Positions 5,345-39,241 of a DNA stretch of 55,033 nt are shown here, in pieces; position 1 is the stretch's first letter, and each line of letters starts with the position of its first letter. The notes under the pieces are model-generated. The model ran no database searches. It was not told where the DNA came from and saw only the letters and a list, made by a program, of their open reading frames with translations. The position numbers and the translations under genes are program-made. This stretch comes from a virus, in UHGV virus genome UHGV-0072939; one strand, 5' to 3'.

Positions 5345-5782
5345 TTAACGTTGCTCCCATATCCAGTAAAACCTGAATTCCTGCCAGTCTTTGCCCGGTG
5401 CCAGATACCGGATGATGAGGTTCAGGCGGTTCGGCATGACGATCTGCGCAACGGGGATAACATCGCTGACCACGCCATCATCCTTAAGCCAGGCAAGAGC
5501 CTCGCGCGCATATTCCTCCGCTCTTTTCGCCACGTCGGTCGTCAGTTTCTGCCTCCGGAGTAACCACAACCTTGACCCGAGCTGCGATTCATCACCAGAA
5601 TCCCCCCACCAGCCACGGCGATCGCTGCCTTCATAATCGTCATCCGCGCGCGCCAGCCGGTCGGTAAACAGGCTGTCCAGTATCGCGGTCTGTAAATCGT
5701 ACCCGGTGGTGAGTGCACCCGGGCCTTCCTGCCAGTCGGCAACCATCTCGTCCACGTTCCAGAAAGAGGCAATGTCGCTCAT
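5345..5782 (-). CDS. baseplate protein, Mu gp46-like
   Basis: 145 aa; position between V-like and J-like genes; recalled GP46 family features. Confidence 0.7.
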   Translation of the reverse strand: MSDIASFWNVDEMVADWQEGPGALTTGYDLQTAILDSLFTDRLARADDDYEGSDRRGWWGDSGDESQLGSRLWLLRRQKLTTDVAKRAEEYAREALAWLKDDGVVSDVIPVAQIVMPNRLNLIIRYLAPGKDWQEFRFYWIWEQR

Positions 5783-34258: not shown

Positions 34259-35115
34259 CCCCTGAACCCCTCAGGAATCTTGGTATCAACTGGCCCGAAC
34301 TTCACAGGATCATGCTTACGAGCTGCATCCCAGTACTGGCGCTCCGGGCGGCCTTTGCTATCCCAGCGGGTAGCGCTGGACAGGTACCCTTCGAACTTTT
34401 TCGGCCCAAACAGGGTTTCAGGACGCATGTACTGGTACTGCTCATCGTTGCCGTTCCAGTGCTCGTGCTTCAGGTCAATAACCAGCTTCAGGTCATTGAC
34501 GCTGTAACCTTCCCGCAGACGGGCGCGGATGTTTTCCAGCGAGGTCCTTGATTTCTGGTAGCGCGATCCGCTGACCTGGTTCAGATGGAGCAAAACTTCA
34601 ATCGCATGGTCAGTAATCACCACTTCCGGGTCGGGTTGCGCAGCAACCGGACAAGAAGGTTTTTTATTTACTGATGGATCAGTAGTTGTATTTACTGACG
34701 GATCCCCGCCAGATCCTGACGGGTGAAAACGCCCCTTTTTGCCGGATTCTGATGCATCAGATTTTGACGGGTCAGATTTTGATGCGTCAGAATTTGACGT
34801 GTCAGAATCTGACAGGTGAGAAAAGGCCGCAGCCTGAAGCTTTGCCACATTCAGCTGGTAAACGTTTGAAGCATTGCGGTTACCGTTGCGGCGTTGTTTG
34901 CGTGACAACCAGCCCTCCTGCTCAAGCTTACCGATGGCGGTACGTACGGTGCTTTCCCCCGCCCCTATCTGCCGGGCAATGGTCCCGATAGACGGCCAGC
35001 ACACGCCCTCGTCACTGCTGAAGTCGGCCAGGCGCGCCATGATGGCAACGCTGGACAGCTTCATGCCAGAAGCGGCGCAAGCGTCCCATACGTAGCCGGT
35101 TAATTTAGTGCTCAT
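34255..35115 (-). CDS. replication initiation protein (lambda O-like role), ori iterons inside the gene
   Basis: 286 aa; N-terminal winged-helix-like region, low-complexity SD-rich linker encoded by iteron-like repeats, conserved C-terminal phage replication domain. Confidence 0.7.
   Translation of the reverse strand: MSTKLTGYVWDACAASGMKLSSVAIMARLADFSSDEGVCWPSIGTIARQIGAGESTVRTAIGKLEQEGWLSRKQRRNGNRNASNVYQLNVAKLQAAAFSHLSDSDTSNSDASKSDPSKSDASESGKKGRFHPSGSGGDPSVNTTTDPSVNKKPSCPVAAQPDPEVVITDHAIEVLLHLNQVSGSRYQKSRTSLENIRARLREGYSVNDLKLVIDLKHEHWNGNDEQYQYMRPETLFGPKKFEGYLSSATRWDSKGRPERQYWDAARKHDPVKFGPVDTKIPEGFRG
34667..34818. repeat. iteron-like direct repeats (about eight copies of a 15-bp unit with core CTGA(C/T)G); candidate replication origin
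   Basis: tandem units TCAGATTTTGACGGG / TCAGATTTTGATGCG / TCAGAATTTGACGTG / TCAGAATCTGACAGG read directly at 34758-34818, with further copies upstream to 34667. Confidence 0.55.
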
Positions 35116-35287
35116 GGTCGTTCTTTATCTCCCTGAACTTGCGCTGAAACTGCTCGAGCGGGCTGAAACATTCACCGTGTTCATAGTCCTCGCGCAGGTA
35201 GATAACGCGCCTCGTTTCTGGCTCCCAGCGAATAACACGGACGGGCACGCCGTGGTGGTCTTTGAACCTTCGGTTAACTTCGCGCAT
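35105..35287 (-). CDS. hypothetical small protein (60 aa)
   Basis: ORF only; overlaps replication gene start. Confidence 0.35.
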   Translation of the reverse strand: MREVNRRFKDHHGVPVRVIRWEPETRRVIYLREDYEHGECFSPLEQFQRKFREIKNDHEH

Positions 35288-35459
35288 AAGCGTTTCGCCT
35301 TCCTGTAGTAAACACCCACAATTGCGGCCGCCCGACTGTGGTTACATGGCACCCAGCGGTTTGATATTCTGCGTTCATACCGAAACAGCGGAGTTCCCTG
35401 CACCGGGATCATCCTCAGTTGCGGTAAACGGTTAAAAGCCGTTAAACTGGTCATGCGGA

Positions 35460-36026
35460 TTATTTCTCCATACACGAAGAGTTGTTCGCCAAGGCGCCCG
35501 GAGCTGCACACTCGCGGGCGTCACTTTTTTCCGGCGCACAAAACACACGAAACAGCAGCGTCAGATGCTCCTGCCACTTCGCCATCACCTGGTAACTGTT
35601 CTCTTCGATTTGCTCACGTTCTGCCGGGTCAATAACGCCGTCAGCGGTCGCCTTGCGCAGGTACTGTGAGTGTCTGCCGATCCATTCGATTGACTCCATC
35701 AGGCGCTGGTTGATGTCACCGTTGTCGACGTCATCAATGTCCACCAGCGGCACAAACACACCACCGCTACGGCGGGCTATCGCATCGGTGACGTACTTAG
35801 TGCCGCTGGCATCCTGCAGCACCATCGCCCACTCAAGCGGGAAAATCTGGTCGCCTTCGCTGCGCAGCCGGTTATAGAGCGCATCGGTTGAAACTTTTCC
35901 GGCGCGATACAGGCCAAGCCATTCAGCAGCTTCGGCATATCCGCCAGGCATTTCGGCGATAGTCCGTTTAATGGCAGCCACCAGCCAGGCGGGCTGTCGT
36001 TCGACTTTCCAGTGTTGTTTATCCAC
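35460..36026 (-). CDS. regulatory protein in the CII position (possibly YdaT-like); start uncertain
   Basis: ORF 35460-36128; GTG at 36026 with AAGGGG SD is the favoured start, to limit overlap with the cro-like gene. Confidence 0.4.
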   Translation of the reverse strand: MDKQHWKVERQPAWLVAAIKRTIAEMPGGYAEAAEWLGLYRAGKVSTDALYNRLRSEGDQIFPLEWAMVLQDASGTKYVTDAIARRSGGVFVPLVDIDDVDNGDINQRLMESIEWIGRHSQYLRKATADGVIDPAEREQIEENSYQVMAKWQEHLTLLFRVFCAPEKSDARECAAPGALANNSSCMEK

Positions 36027-36054
36027 GGTTGTCCCCTTGTTTCTGTGGTATTCG

Positions 36055-36252
36055 TTAAGCGACTGTCTGATTAGACTTTTGATAAAGAACGGAGCTGTAC
36101 TTGAGCTTTCCTTTCGTGATCCGCTCAATCACAAAAGCTTGCTTCTCGGGGATGATCTCCCCCCATCGACAAACTGCTGGATGGGAAATACCTAATGCAT
36201 TAGCAGTTTTGGCTACTCCGCCGAAGTGCTCTATGACTTCAGATTTGCGCAT
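36055..36252 (-). CDS. Cro-like HTH repressor
   Basis: 65 aa, AGGAGG SD, HTH (VAKTANALGISHPAVCRW); divergent from the cI-like gene. Confidence 0.7.
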   Translation of the reverse strand: MRKSEVIEHFGGVAKTANALGISHPAVCRWGEIIPEKQAFVIERITKGKLKYSSVLYQKSNQTVA

Positions 36253-36277
36253 GATTCCTCCTGGTTACCTTACGCAC

Positions 36278-36348
36278 CACAAGGTAACAAAAGGTACATT
36301 AAATAGCAAACAACAGTTACCATCAAAAGAGGTAACATTGGTTACATG
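36278..36348. promoter_or_regulatory. operator-like AGGTA direct-repeat pairs in the cro/cI intergenic region (OR-like)
   Basis: AAGGTAACAAAAGGTACATT and GAGGTAACATTGGTTACATG read directly; same unit recurs downstream of cI. Confidence 0.45.
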
Positions 36349-37005
36349 AAAACAGAGATGAAAGACCGTATTCGTTCGCGTCGAGTCCAGCTCGATATGA
36401 CTCAGCTTACCCTTGCCAAAAAGCTTGGGGTCAGTCGCGTGTCTGTAACGAAATGGGAGAATGGAACAACGAAGCCGGATGGTGAGAATTTACACCAACT
36501 TGCTGGTGTACTTCAGGTAACCCCGGAATGGATTCTCTATGGCAAAGGAGATGCTGACGTTGATGATATCAAATTAGTCCCCTTCCTTAAGCCGCCAACA
36601 GCAGTGCCTATTATATCAGCCGTTCAGGCTGGTTTATGGACAGAAACCTACGCCAGTTCAAGGCTTACAGACGTGATTGCATGGACACAAACTACAGCTA
36701 ATGTATCTGATGAGGTTTTCGGGTTAGTGGTCCGCGGAGAGTCAATGACTAACCCTCATGGATTGCCATCAATTCCAGAAGGTTCCATTGTTATCGTTGA
36801 ACCACATTTCGGGCAAATTGATGATCTTTACGGGAAAATAGTCGTTGCCACACTGGAAGGCTCTACCGAAGCGACTGTAAAAAAATTAGTGTGGGATAGC
36901 CCATTCGCCTATCTCATGCCACTTAACCCAGCTTTCAAGCCTATCCAAATTGACGGAAACTGCCGAATTGTCGGCAAAGTCGTCCAAATAACCCAGAACA
37001 TTTAA
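36346..37005 (+). CDS. CI-like prophage repressor (HTH plus S24 peptidase domain)
   Basis: 219 aa; N-terminal HTH (LTQLTLAKKLGVSRVSVTKWENG), C-terminal GESM...K (VVRGESMTNP, KKL) LexA-type autocleavage domain. Confidence 0.85.
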   Translation: MKTEMKDRIRSRRVQLDMTQLTLAKKLGVSRVSVTKWENGTTKPDGENLHQLAGVLQVTPEWILYGKGDADVDDIKLVPFLKPPTAVPIISAVQAGLWTETYASSRLTDVIAWTQTTANVSDEVFGLVVRGESMTNPHGLPSIPEGSIVIVEPHFGQIDDLYGKIVVATLEGSTEATVKKLVWDSPFAYLMPLNPAFKPIQIDGNCRIVGKVVQITQNI

Positions 37006-37020
37006 CCCCCCAGATATGTA

Positions 37021-37047
37021 GCCAAAGTTACCTTTGGCTATTTTTTT
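37021..37047 (+). terminator. intrinsic terminator downstream of the cI-like gene
   Basis: GCCAAAG-TTAC-CTTTGGC hairpin followed by TATTTTTTT. Confidence 0.7.
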
Positions 37048-37053
37048 ACCCCT

Positions 37054-37109
37054 AAAGGTAACATTAGGTACATTTCACGCTTGACCATCAAGGTAACTAA
37101 AGGTACATT
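37054..37109 (+). promoter_or_regulatory. candidate early rightward promoter with overlapping operator repeats (PL-like)
   Basis: two AGGTAAC-N-AGGTACATT repeat pairs; TTGACC (37081) 17 bp upstream of TACATT (37104). Confidence 0.4.
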
Positions 37110-37847
37110 CAATCCATCAACAGCGAACAGGCAGGACGCCCACGAAGTAGCCGCCGGTGGCATACGAAAAACCGGATGATTCGCTGACAGGTGTCTTCGG
37201 GAGGGGTAACAGGGTCGCGGCCTGATTAACCGCTACTCGTAGTCAAATTCCTACAGCTGGTGGCGATACCCAAGCCAGGAATACCTAAAACCAGCAGGGA
37301 GTGTTAAGGACAAGGGCTAATCATCCCCCTTAGCACCCCGCCCGAAGATCCCTGTTATTGCCAACGACCCTTTCTGGCGGCCCGTGTTTTCCCTTATGTC
37401 CGCGGTCACCGCCAGCTTTTTCAGGGCACAACATGCAAGCGCATTCTATCTAACATCGGTCGTGGGGACTGGTTTGTAACTGAAAGAGTGCGCTTCCAGT
37501 TGTGATGTGCTCAAGCGAGCTGCAGCGCCGGCCGACGCAAAGACCTGTGAATCGGCTTAGCCGCAGTTTCTGGCGGCCAATACCAAAACAGAGCGGCAGG
37601 AAGTAAGCGGGTTAGCGACCCGGTGTCACAACGTTCAATCCCGATAAGCACCCTTGCGAGGATGTTTATCGGGACTGGAAGAGTTACCACTTGGAGACGG
37701 TCCTTATAAATGTCCTGGGAAGTGGCGCTTTGGTCGCGATAACAACCACTCCAGTTGATCCTGGGAGTTATCAGGTCAGTGAGCTGCCAGCACTCTCGAC
37801 GGCAGTGACGGCGGGAAGTAGACCGCTGACAGCTGGGAAAGACCAGC

Positions 37848-37936
37848 ACACAACAGATAAGAGCATCGCCGGGCGACGGGCTCATAACCCAACCCACCCG
37901 GGCGGTTGCAGCCGCAGGTGCTCTTATCTGTTGTGT
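37848..37936 (+). other. perfect 18-bp inverted repeat (ACACAACAGATAAGAGCA / TGCTCTTATCTGTTGTGT) with 53-bp GC-rich spacer in a long untranslated leader
   Basis: read directly; right arm contains boxA-like TGCTCTTA; lies ~50 nt upstream of the first early ORF. Confidence 0.6.
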
Positions 37937-37985
37937 ATGGAGATAACTTACTGGCGGTGGCAGCCGCCGTTACGAGGGTAAACCG

Positions 37986-38357
37986 ATGAGCAATGATCGC
38001 ATGACCATAGTGCCCGATTTCCTGGGCGAACTGGATGCCGGGGTGTTCATGAACAAAATCGCGGCAGCTTTAAACACCACCGCGCTTGGTGTTCTGAATA
38101 ACGGCAGCAAAGGCAAAGTAGTCCTCACCTTTGACTTTGAGCGTATGGGTAACTCCGTCGAGGAGAAGCGCGTCAAGATCAAGCACAAGCTGAACTACAG
38201 CACCCCAACTCCGCGCGGTAAAGCCTCCGAAGAAGACACCACCGAAACACCTATGTGGGTTAACAAAGGTGGCAAGCTGACCATCCTGCAGGAAGATCAG
38301 GGGCAGTTGTTCGGGATCAACGGCGGCGTTGACGGAAAGCTTAAAGCGGCACAGTGA
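37986..38357 (+). CDS. hypothetical early protein (123 aa)
   Basis: GAGGGT SD before ATG 37986; first gene of rightward early operon. Confidence 0.4.
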   Translation: MSNDRMTIVPDFLGELDAGVFMNKIAAALNTTALGVLNNGSKGKVVLTFDFERMGNSVEEKRVKIKHKLNYSTPTPRGKASEEDTTETPMWVNKGGKLTILQEDQGQLFGINGGVDGKLKAAQ

Positions 38358-38410
38358 TCCGCAGCAGACAAATCACTGACATCACTTTGACCACATATTA
38401 AGGAAATTTT

Positions 38411-39241
38411 ATGTCCCAGATTTTAGACGGCAATGCCCTGCAGCAGGTGAAAGACCTGGTTCTTTCCGGTTACCACCTGACTGCTGTTAAAGAAACGGCA
38501 TGCCCTACCGCCCTTCTCCCTGAAGGCGTAAACGTTGAAAGCCTCGAGCGTTTCGACCTGGAGCGTTTTCGTTTCCGCGGCGCCATGACCACAACCAGCA
38601 TTCCTGATTTTGTGCGTTATGCGGCTGGCTACGCCAACGAGGCCGAACCAGCGCGCTGCTTTATCGATGCTGACAACATGACCGCACGCTCCGTCTTTAA
38701 TATCGGTACGCTGGCTAACCCAGGCCATGCTGATAACGTCGCCTCTATCACCCTCAAAAAGACAGCACCATACCGAGCCCTGCTCCAGATTAACGGTGAT
38801 CGTCTGGGTCAGAAAGAAATAGCTGAGTGGCTGGAAGACTGGGCCGACTACCTCACCGCATTTGATGCCGACGGGAATGTATTGTCCATCGCGCAAGCAG
38901 CTGGTGCTGTTCGCCGCGTCAACATTAAACAAGTCTCAGAAGCAGCTCATGAAGACGAAGACTTTGGCGGCAGAAAGTCCCTGATGCAGAGCGTTGAAGC
39001 CAGCAGCAAAGACGTCATGCCGGTGGCCTTTGAGTTCAAATGCGTGCCATATGAAGGCCTGGGCGAACGCCGCTTTAGTCTGCGCAATAGCCTGCTCAAA
39101 AGTGGGGAACCGATATTTGTGCTGCGCATTGTTCAACTGGAAGCCCAGGAAGAAGCTATCGCCAATGAGTTCCGAGATCTGCTGATCGAGAAATTCACCG
39201 ATAAGCCGGTAGAAACCTTCATCGGTAATTTCAAAGCGTAA
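38411..39241 (+). CDS. YfdQ/DUF2303-like early protein
   Basis: 276 aa; recalled resemblance to CPS-53 prophage YfdQ; followed by HD-domain gene as in that prophage. Confidence 0.45.
   Translation: MSQILDGNALQQVKDLVLSGYHLTAVKETACPTALLPEGVNVESLERFDLERFRFRGAMTTTSIPDFVRYAAGYANEAEPARCFIDADNMTARSVFNIGTLANPGHADNVASITLKKTAPYRALLQINGDRLGQKEIAEWLEDWADYLTAFDADGNVLSIAQAAGAVRRVNIKQVSEAAHEDEDFGGRKSLMQSVEASSKDVMPVAFEFKCVPYEGLGERRFSLRNSLLKSGEPIFVLRIVQLEAQEEAIANEFRDLLIEKFTDKPVETFIGNFKA

Follow-up and report, generated by a model that had tools for sequence, protein, structure and literature searches.

AGGTA repeats on both sides of a cI-like gene as probable operators of a P22-type cI/Cro switch of uncharacterised specificity

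The DNA discussed here is the virus genome UHGV-0072939, a stretch of 55,033 nucleotides, which we call the window. Its immunity region contains the following genes and a terminator:

35460-36128: CII/CP76-family gene (Pfam), next to cro
36055-36252, minus strand: cro-like gene, 65 amino acids, divergent from cI
36346-37005, plus strand: gene of a cI-like repressor, 219 amino acids, with an N-terminal helix-turn-helix (HTH) and a C-terminal self-cleaving S24 domain
37018-37048, plus strand: intrinsic terminator of cI, 10-pair hairpin plus T run

The two domains of the repressor are assigned by Pfam to HTH_3 (2e-16) and Peptidase_S24 (3.8e-23). Over its full length the protein is homologous to lambda CI (structure 3bdn, E 1.5e-22, alignment of residues 10-213), and this includes the Ala-Gly cleavage site and the region of the Ser/Lys dyad: its QAG (Ala95-Gly96), GESM (Ser133) and KK (179-180) align with VQAG, GNSM and FKKL of lambda. 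The N-terminal domain is closer to P22 c2 and 434 repressor than to lambda; it matches the P22 c2 structures 1adr and 2r1j with E about 1e-13, and also 434 repressor. In tblastn the repressor is 45-47% identical to P22 c2, and Cro is 48% identical to its P22 counterpart. The cro-like product falls into the Pfam family P22_Cro (E 3.3e-23) and is homologous to the P22 Cro structure 1rzs (E 4e-13). Two traits that define P22-type immunity are present: an HTH plus S24 repressor with Ala-Gly site and Ser/Lys dyad, and, beside it, a divergent cro of the helical P22 Cro family. The ATG of cI at 36346 is not preceded by a Shine-Dalgarno sequence.

A reading made from the sequence only had described AGGTA repeat units flanking cI, with half-sites 4 or 5 nt apart. 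The units are indeed there. In the 55-kb window AGGTAAC-N3-AGGTACATT occurs three times as an exact 19-mer, at 36282-36300, 37056-37074 and 37091-37109. A version with three mismatches is found on the plus strand at 36330-36348, where it overlaps the cI ATG, and another one on the minus strand at 37015-37033, within the terminator hairpin of cI. The spacing, however, has to be corrected: AAGGTAAC and AGGTACATT are separated by 3 nt in every copy, which is why the AGGTA pentamers lie 10 bp apart. With up to three mismatches the 19-mer is matched six times (0.21 expected; six were reached in none of 100 shuffles), and all of these matches save one, at 5771, are in the immunity region. An independent repeat search united the four plus-strand copies in one family. 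Written as A(G/T)GTAAC-N4-G(G/T)TACAT, with up to two mismatches, the motif occurs at five places in the 55 kb, all of them within 36282-37108, where 0.65 would be expected by chance; all five match on both strands. The candidate operators and promoters are these:

36281-36309, minus strand: putative PR, -35 TTGCTA (36309-36304), 17-nt spacer, -10 TACCTT (36286-36281)
36282-36299: OR1, AGGTAAC-AAAA-GGTACAT, 18-bp pseudo-palindrome, 5/7 symmetric pairs
36305-36322: OR2, putative and weak, AGCAAAC-AACA-GTTACCA, 4/7 symmetric pairs
36330-36347: OR3, AGGTAAC-ATTG-GTTACAT, 6/7 symmetric pairs
36333-36338, plus strand: putative -10 of PRM, TAACAT, operator positions 4-9 of OR3
37016-37033, minus strand: operator-like AGGTAACTTTGGCTACAT, one mismatch to the degenerate consensus, inside the terminator hairpin
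37056-37073: OL2, AGGTAAC-ATTA-GGTACAT, followed after 7 bp by the PL -35
37081-37109, plus strand: PL, -35 TTGACC, 17-nt spacer, -10 TACATT (promoter scan, 9/12 matches)
37091-37108: OL1, AGGTAAC-TAAA-GGTACAT, covering the PL spacer and all but one of the six -10 bases

The overlap of the last repeat copy with a TTGACC-17-TACATT arrangement, also pointed out before, is confirmed at 37081-37109. PL is the sole sigma-70-like match of the scan in 35900-38100; its predicted start is near 37116, and its -35 is essentially invariant in relatives. The putative PR, whose start is predicted near 36274, was not picked up by the scan of 35900-38100. It is conserved in all relatives, the -10 reading TACATT in phages AH07 and ZF40, and OR1 occupies its spacer and -10. 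Another candidate, TTGATG-17-TTTAAT (36326-36298), would correspond to P22 by position; it was rejected, its -10 being devoid of the second-position A and its -35 falling into a variable stretch. We favour TTGCTA-17-TACCTT as the candidate PR because it is conserved and gives OR1 the register that OL1 has at PL. On the other side, OR3 extends over the putative -10 of PRM into the start codon of cI. The cI message is likely almost leaderless, with a predicted start near 36344, since the RM transcript of P22 is annotated as starting 4 nt before the c2 ATG.

Of OR the sequence-only reading had listed the two outer copies, which stand, and had overlooked a conserved half-site between them, GTTAC at 36316-36320. 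The right half of OR2 corresponds to the consensus; the left one is degenerate and doubles as the -35 of PR. The block 36300-36320, which contains most of OR2, is invariant in relatives, a conservation that could stem from promoter elements alone. The centre of OR2 is 23 bp away from that of OR1 and 25 bp from that of OR3; OL1 and OL2 are 35 bp apart. The operator-like AGGTAACTTTGGCTACAT at 37016-37033 is doubtful as an operator because it is shared by the closest relatives only, the terminators of most relatives are unrelated, and it is off the position of P22 OL3. That position, 37027-37044, bears no operator-like sequence. GGTTACCTT at 36263-36270 was dismissed as a possible further half-site because relatives do not conserve it.

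For comparison, 97 loci that carry this cI allele were collected (N-terminal domain identity 62-100%). The relatives are five annotated phages (Pantoea AH07, Klebsiella ST101-KPC2phi6.3 and ST13-OXA48phi12.2, Escherichia 733R5 and Pectobacterium ZF40), 80 viral contigs and 11 bacterial genomes; they provided 62 different sequences of OR and 87 of OL, 85 of the latter being anchored. These related loci are non-independent samples, most of them being 87-90% identical in cI. Among the 62 OR sequences the columns 36280-36320 and 36331-36348 are almost invariant, OR1 nearly so in its entirety, and the DNA from cro to 36280 and the stretch 36321-36330 are close to random. In the OR and in the anchored OL sequences alike, the promoter hexamers are near invariant too, and the spacers and flanks beside the operators are almost random. 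On the OL side, terminators and downstream leaders differ among relatives. OL1 is near invariant in the 85 anchored sequences; OL2 is moderately conserved, its majority form being AGGTAAC-AAAA-AGTACAT.

The motif search across related prophages that the sequence-only reading had proposed thus finds the sites conserved together with the cI/cro allele. In 96 same-allele loci, 411 of 413 motif matches are within the OR and OL windows, just upstream or downstream of cI. Eleven other loci, among them ST64B, SfV, mEp237, SPN3UB, Flotzy and HK022, yielded no match at all. Of these, ST64B, SfV, Flotzy and mEp237 carry the same cII-like module or PL leader. Conversely, many relatives retain the operators although their cII-like neighbour is absent, swapped or no more than 26-30% identical. 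The HTH sequence LGVSRVSVTKWE is identical in all relatives but ZF40. The sites co-vary with the cI/cro allele rather than with the flanking genes. The motif tracks this allele amid variable flanks and is missing from heteroimmune phages with the same neighbouring modules, so that the reading of the sites as immunity-specific operators is well supported by strong comparative evidence. The proposal that the repeats belong to an OR-like and an OL/PL-like region is likewise favoured by conservation, by co-segregation with the allele and by promoters in P22 register. A literature search found no paper that describes these operators, their sequences or the immunity type.

The sequence-only reading had also claimed that the half-sites are direct rather than inverted repeats. 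This part is not supported. In the window AAGGTAAC-N4-GGTACATT scores 6/8 as a direct and 6/8 as an inverted repeat; these equal scores result from the self-complementarity of GTAC, so that one site alone cannot settle the orientation. Many sites can. With equal numbers of parameters, a model of 78 distinct sites with the halves tied as inverted repeats reached -1274.6 bits, the best direct tying -1404.6; for the four window sites only, the values are -47.8 and -52.5 bits. Direct-repeat models were tried at offsets of 9, 10 and 11 in all registers, and none of them fitted as well as the dyad model. The OR3 of most relatives, ATGTAAC-ATTG-GTTACAT, has 7-bp arms that are perfectly inverted copies of each other, and OR1 of ZF40 is likewise a perfect ATGTAAC-N4-GTTACAT. 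The window operators match their own reverse complement, with one or two mismatches to A(G/T)GTAAC-N4-G(G/T)TACAT. As in P22-type immunity, several dyad-symmetric operators with a common half-site consensus lie between cI and cro and, downstream of cI, over PL.

The direct-repeat look has two causes, the self-complementary GTAC core and the departure of positions 2 and 13 of the 18-mer from the palindrome. G at these two positions is conserved in OR1, OL1 and OL2, and jointly the two G create the AGGTA/AGGTA identity at 10 bp; the thirteenth position is T in OR2 and OR3. The three operators with G at 2 and 13 lie over or beside lytic promoters. An untied model of the 78 sites (-1092.5 bits) is much better than the dyad-tied one, which means that the half-sites are not equivalent.

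This non-equivalence, the AAGGTA that returns after 10 bp in OR1, OL1 and the OL2 of the window, and the fact that both conserved departures from the palindrome favour direct identity could also be taken to mean that the repressor recognises head-to-tail AGGTA half-sites one helical turn apart, its dimer binding asymmetrically, unlike the repressors of lambda, P22 and 434. We consider this very unlikely. Apart from the poorer fit of all direct-tied models and the perfect inverted repeats of the relatives, the GGTTAC of OR3 breaks the 10-bp register and completes the palindrome, the majority form of OL2 has AGTACA, not GGTACA, and all four G/T combinations are found at the asymmetric positions among the sites. 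Moreover, the N-terminal domain is homologous to P22 c2 and 434 repressor, which have both been solved on operator DNA, and for P22 c2 binding to palindromic half-sites has been described (PMC2995052). Another reading, in which the conserved asymmetry is functional, encoding a preference order of CI versus Cro or orienting an asymmetrically bound dimer, is an unlikely one too, if less so; were it true, the AGGTA-N5-AGGTA direct identity would be a product of selection and not a by-product.

Direct-repeat operators do have a precedent in P2-like phages, and P2 C structurally resembles P22 c2 (PMC2995052). Like the repressor discussed here, P2 C is an HTH immunity repressor with an operator overlapping an early promoter. 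On the P2 model each AGGTA would be bound by a dimer of its own, two dimers cooperating on the direct repeats. In P2-type operators, however, the repeats are two to three helical turns apart; those of P2 itself are 8 bp long, spaced 22 bp centre to centre, and take one dimer each (PMC2995052). In the window the repeats follow each other at 10 bp inside a single 18-bp site, too close for two dimers, and P2 C is a protein of 99 amino acids (PMC2995052) that lacks an S24 domain, in contrast to the 219-residue HTH plus S24 protein encoded here. This mechanism can be given next to no credence. Finally, the repeats might not be protein-binding sites at all. They coincide in part with the TACATT of PL, the TAACAT of PRM and the cI start codon, and might accordingly be conserved promoter elements or else the outcome of chance or of a recent duplication. 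This, too, is highly improbable: all 18 bp are conserved, including bases in the spacer region on which a promoter places no constraint; OL2 is located upstream of the -35; one consensus occurs at five places and nowhere else in 55 kb; and heteroimmune phages with the same TTGACC/TACATT-type frame bear different repeats there.

What remains is the comparison of the palindromic sites with the operators of P22, which in both systems are 18 bp long and composed of 7+4+7 bp. The P22 frames were read from its annotated C2-binding regions in the orientation of the repressor gene:

OR of P22: OR1 (18 bp), 5 bp, OR2 (18 bp), 7 bp, OR3 (18 bp), then the c2 ATG
OR of the window: 36282-36299, 5 bp, 36305-36322, 7 bp, 36330-36347; ATG at 36346
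OL of P22: OL2 (18 bp), 7 bp, TTGACC, 4 bp, OL1 (18 bp); the -10 is made of the last five operator bases plus T
OL of the window: 37056-37073, 7 bp, TTGACC, 4 bp, 37091-37108; -10 TACATT

OR1, OR3, OL2 and OL1 sit in the frames of their P22 namesakes, and the operator spacing and the promoter register are P22-like, OR2 being only a weak match (4/7 pairs). Even the TAAGAT that closes the annotated PRM interval of P22 is made of positions 4-9 of OR3, precisely those of TAACAT in the window. The central 4-bp spacer is A/T-rich according to the column table of the sites, as it is in P22 and 434. The systems differ in detail. The half-sites, ATGTAAC in the window versus ATTTAAG in P22, have five of seven bases in common, and the recognition helices read SRVSVTK and SNVAISQ, respectively; with different half-site bases and a different recognition helix, the immunity specificity differs from that of P22. 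The window operators have 4-6 symmetric pairs out of seven, those of P22 5-7. P22 has an OL3, which the window lacks at that position, and OR3 overlaps the ATG by 2 nt here, whereas it abuts the c2 ATG in P22.

In lambda cI and cro are divergent, OR is tripartite, PL lies downstream of cI, and the cI message made from PRM is nearly leaderless. The window shares these features, the last of them probably. The operators of lambda, in contrast, are 17 bp long with an odd central base, as compared to 18 bp here, and lambda Cro has a different fold (PMC6649833).

The leader of the PL transcript deserves a separate remark. It is without an annotated nutL or the gene-24-type arrangement, unlike that of P22, and bears a different structured RNA: at the 5' end of the transcript we noted a conserved structure of about 75 nt (37115-37192). 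The consensus of 18 diverse copies comprises 13 pairs, and compensatory changes are seen in 10 of these. In 72 copies (67 distinct) 96.8% of the cells are paired versus 72.9% after shuffling, and sliding the partners leaves 20-47% paired. At least 52 phage records contain the element, representing many immunity types and including a T5-like Providencia phage, and its 14-nt core is present in at least 120 viral contigs; in contigs with a good upstream promoter match, the core usually follows the -10 at a distance of about 28-31 nt. A query with 36000-37300 matched 1389 of 5426 E. coli genomes, most of which match the leader stretch only. An Rfam search of 35000-39000 with E up to 1 returned only two chance-level matches to microRNA families and none for the leader RNA. 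A covariance model found no copy in HK022 and no second one in the window, by which the RNA has no detectable relative among HK022 sequences, including the put sites. A search of the window for boxA gave 33 matches versus 23.6 expected, which is not above chance. The whole leader of about 870 nt folds far better than its shuffles (z = -4.64) and contains no plus-strand open reading frame of at least 40 amino acids, except one with a TTG start at 37691-37981. It is a mosaic, the modules of which occur separately in other phages; one of them is a long hairpin, supported by covariation, directly before the first PL gene.

Taken together, the AGGTA repeats are very probably the operators of a P22-type cI/Cro switch, imperfect 18-bp palindromes with a new, uncharacterised specificity. 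The switch looks ordinary apart from this specificity, as the sites fit imperfect 18-bp palindromes better than direct repeats. Each operator would be composed of two inverted 7-bp half-sites, A(G/T)GTAAC, around the A/T-rich spacer, and would bind a single repressor dimer, each half-site taking one helix-turn-helix; a pair of AGGTA pentamers at 10-bp distance would then be the halves of one dimer site. Repressor bound to OR1 and OR2 would occlude the rightward promoter that drives cro. On the other side, dimers at OL1 and OL2 would block PL, the one at OL1 covering the spacer and the -10. OR3 covers the putative -10 of PRM and the cI start codon; its occupation might result in negative autoregulation, and it is the likely target of Cro. 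Self-cleavage of the repressor between Ala95 and Gly96, stimulated by RecA, would lead to induction of the prophage. Binding, the order of occupancy, the transcription starts, the activation of PRM and induction are what we infer from the homologies and the layout.

For a so far uncharacterised immunity group the consensus, the promoter layout and the likely logic of the switch are now defined. Prophages of this group reside in Escherichia, Klebsiella, Pantoea, Pectobacterium (ZF40), Edwardsiella, Buttiauxella and others. The system reveals no new mode of operator recognition; it is a natural specificity variant of the c2/Cro system of P22, and as such it is useful for annotation and for forecasting superinfection immunity between prophages.

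The transcript from PL, the inferred promoter downstream of the repressor gene cI, begins with a conserved structured RNA (window 37115-37192, plus strand). Its parts are an outer stem P1, a GGC/GCC hairpin, the invariant stretch CACGAAGUAGCC and a stem P3. Among 72 copies, 67 of them distinct, pairing is retained in 96.8% of the cells versus 72.9% in shuffles, and 210 cells carry double changes. The window itself contains a single copy, and Rfam offers no match for this RNA. Our guess is that it acts in cis as a leader element, e.g., as an antitermination or stability signal.

The element is by no means confined to one immunity type; many of them carry it directly 3' of PL-type promoters. It is present in phages ST64B, SfV, SfII, mEp237, SPN3UB and ZF40, in an Aeromonas phage and also in a T5-like Providencia phage; no copy was found in HK022. 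When the stretch 36000-37300 was used as query, 1389 of 5426 E. coli genomes were matched, in most of them by the leader RNA stretch alone, which is left without annotation in the matched genomes.

The whole leader is much longer. From PL to the first PL gene, which starts at 37986, it extends over about 870 nt (37116-37985, plus strand), and its plus strand contains no open reading frame of 40 or more amino acids except one with a TTG start at 37691-37981. Its predicted fold of -362 kcal/mol is much better than that of shuffled sequences (z = -4.64). The leader is mosaic: at least four modules make it up, and in the PL leaders of other phages these occur apart from one another.

A second structure lies at the far end of this leader (37848-37990, plus strand). 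Here 37848-37866 pairs with 37918-37936 in a stem of about 20 bp that has two hairpins within it; a further hairpin follows, just ahead of where the first PL gene starts. The arrangement is kept in 19 sequences, with compensatory changes in 11 of its 38 pairs; Rfam yielded nothing here beyond a microRNA-like match at chance level. It could be a structure for RNase III-type processing or for control of translation.

Two short sequences in the cI/cro region may be mentioned. The terminator hairpin of cI contains an operator-like sequence, AGGTAACTTTGGCTACAT (37016-37033, minus strand), which deviates from the degenerate operator consensus by one mismatch and is limited to the closest relatives. 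Either the symmetry of the hairpin may have produced it by chance, or it may be a weak third site of OL, the operator at PL. The rightward transcript contains the boxA-like CGTTCTTTATCAA (36079-36091, minus strand) at the 3' terminus of cro; it differs from YGCTCTTTAACAA by two mismatches, a match statistically indistinguishable from chance. In P22, the boxA of nutR directly follows cro.

The enterobacterial-type immunity region of the window also occurs, with 92% protein identity, in a 420-kb contig (L086, CACSKA010000005.1) of a genome record titled Chryseobacterium sp. This points to an assembly that is mislabelled or contaminated, not to a host among the Bacteroidota.

Five heteroimmune viral contigs (L120, L123, L111, L114 and L119) share the PL frame with the window: a TTGAC-type -35 region is followed by the -10 region and the leader RNA. 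Their operator positions hold other repeated motifs, e.g., GTAAGTTATCC in L120 and L123. These contigs are a natural operator-swap series, in which the scaffold of promoter and leader stays constant.
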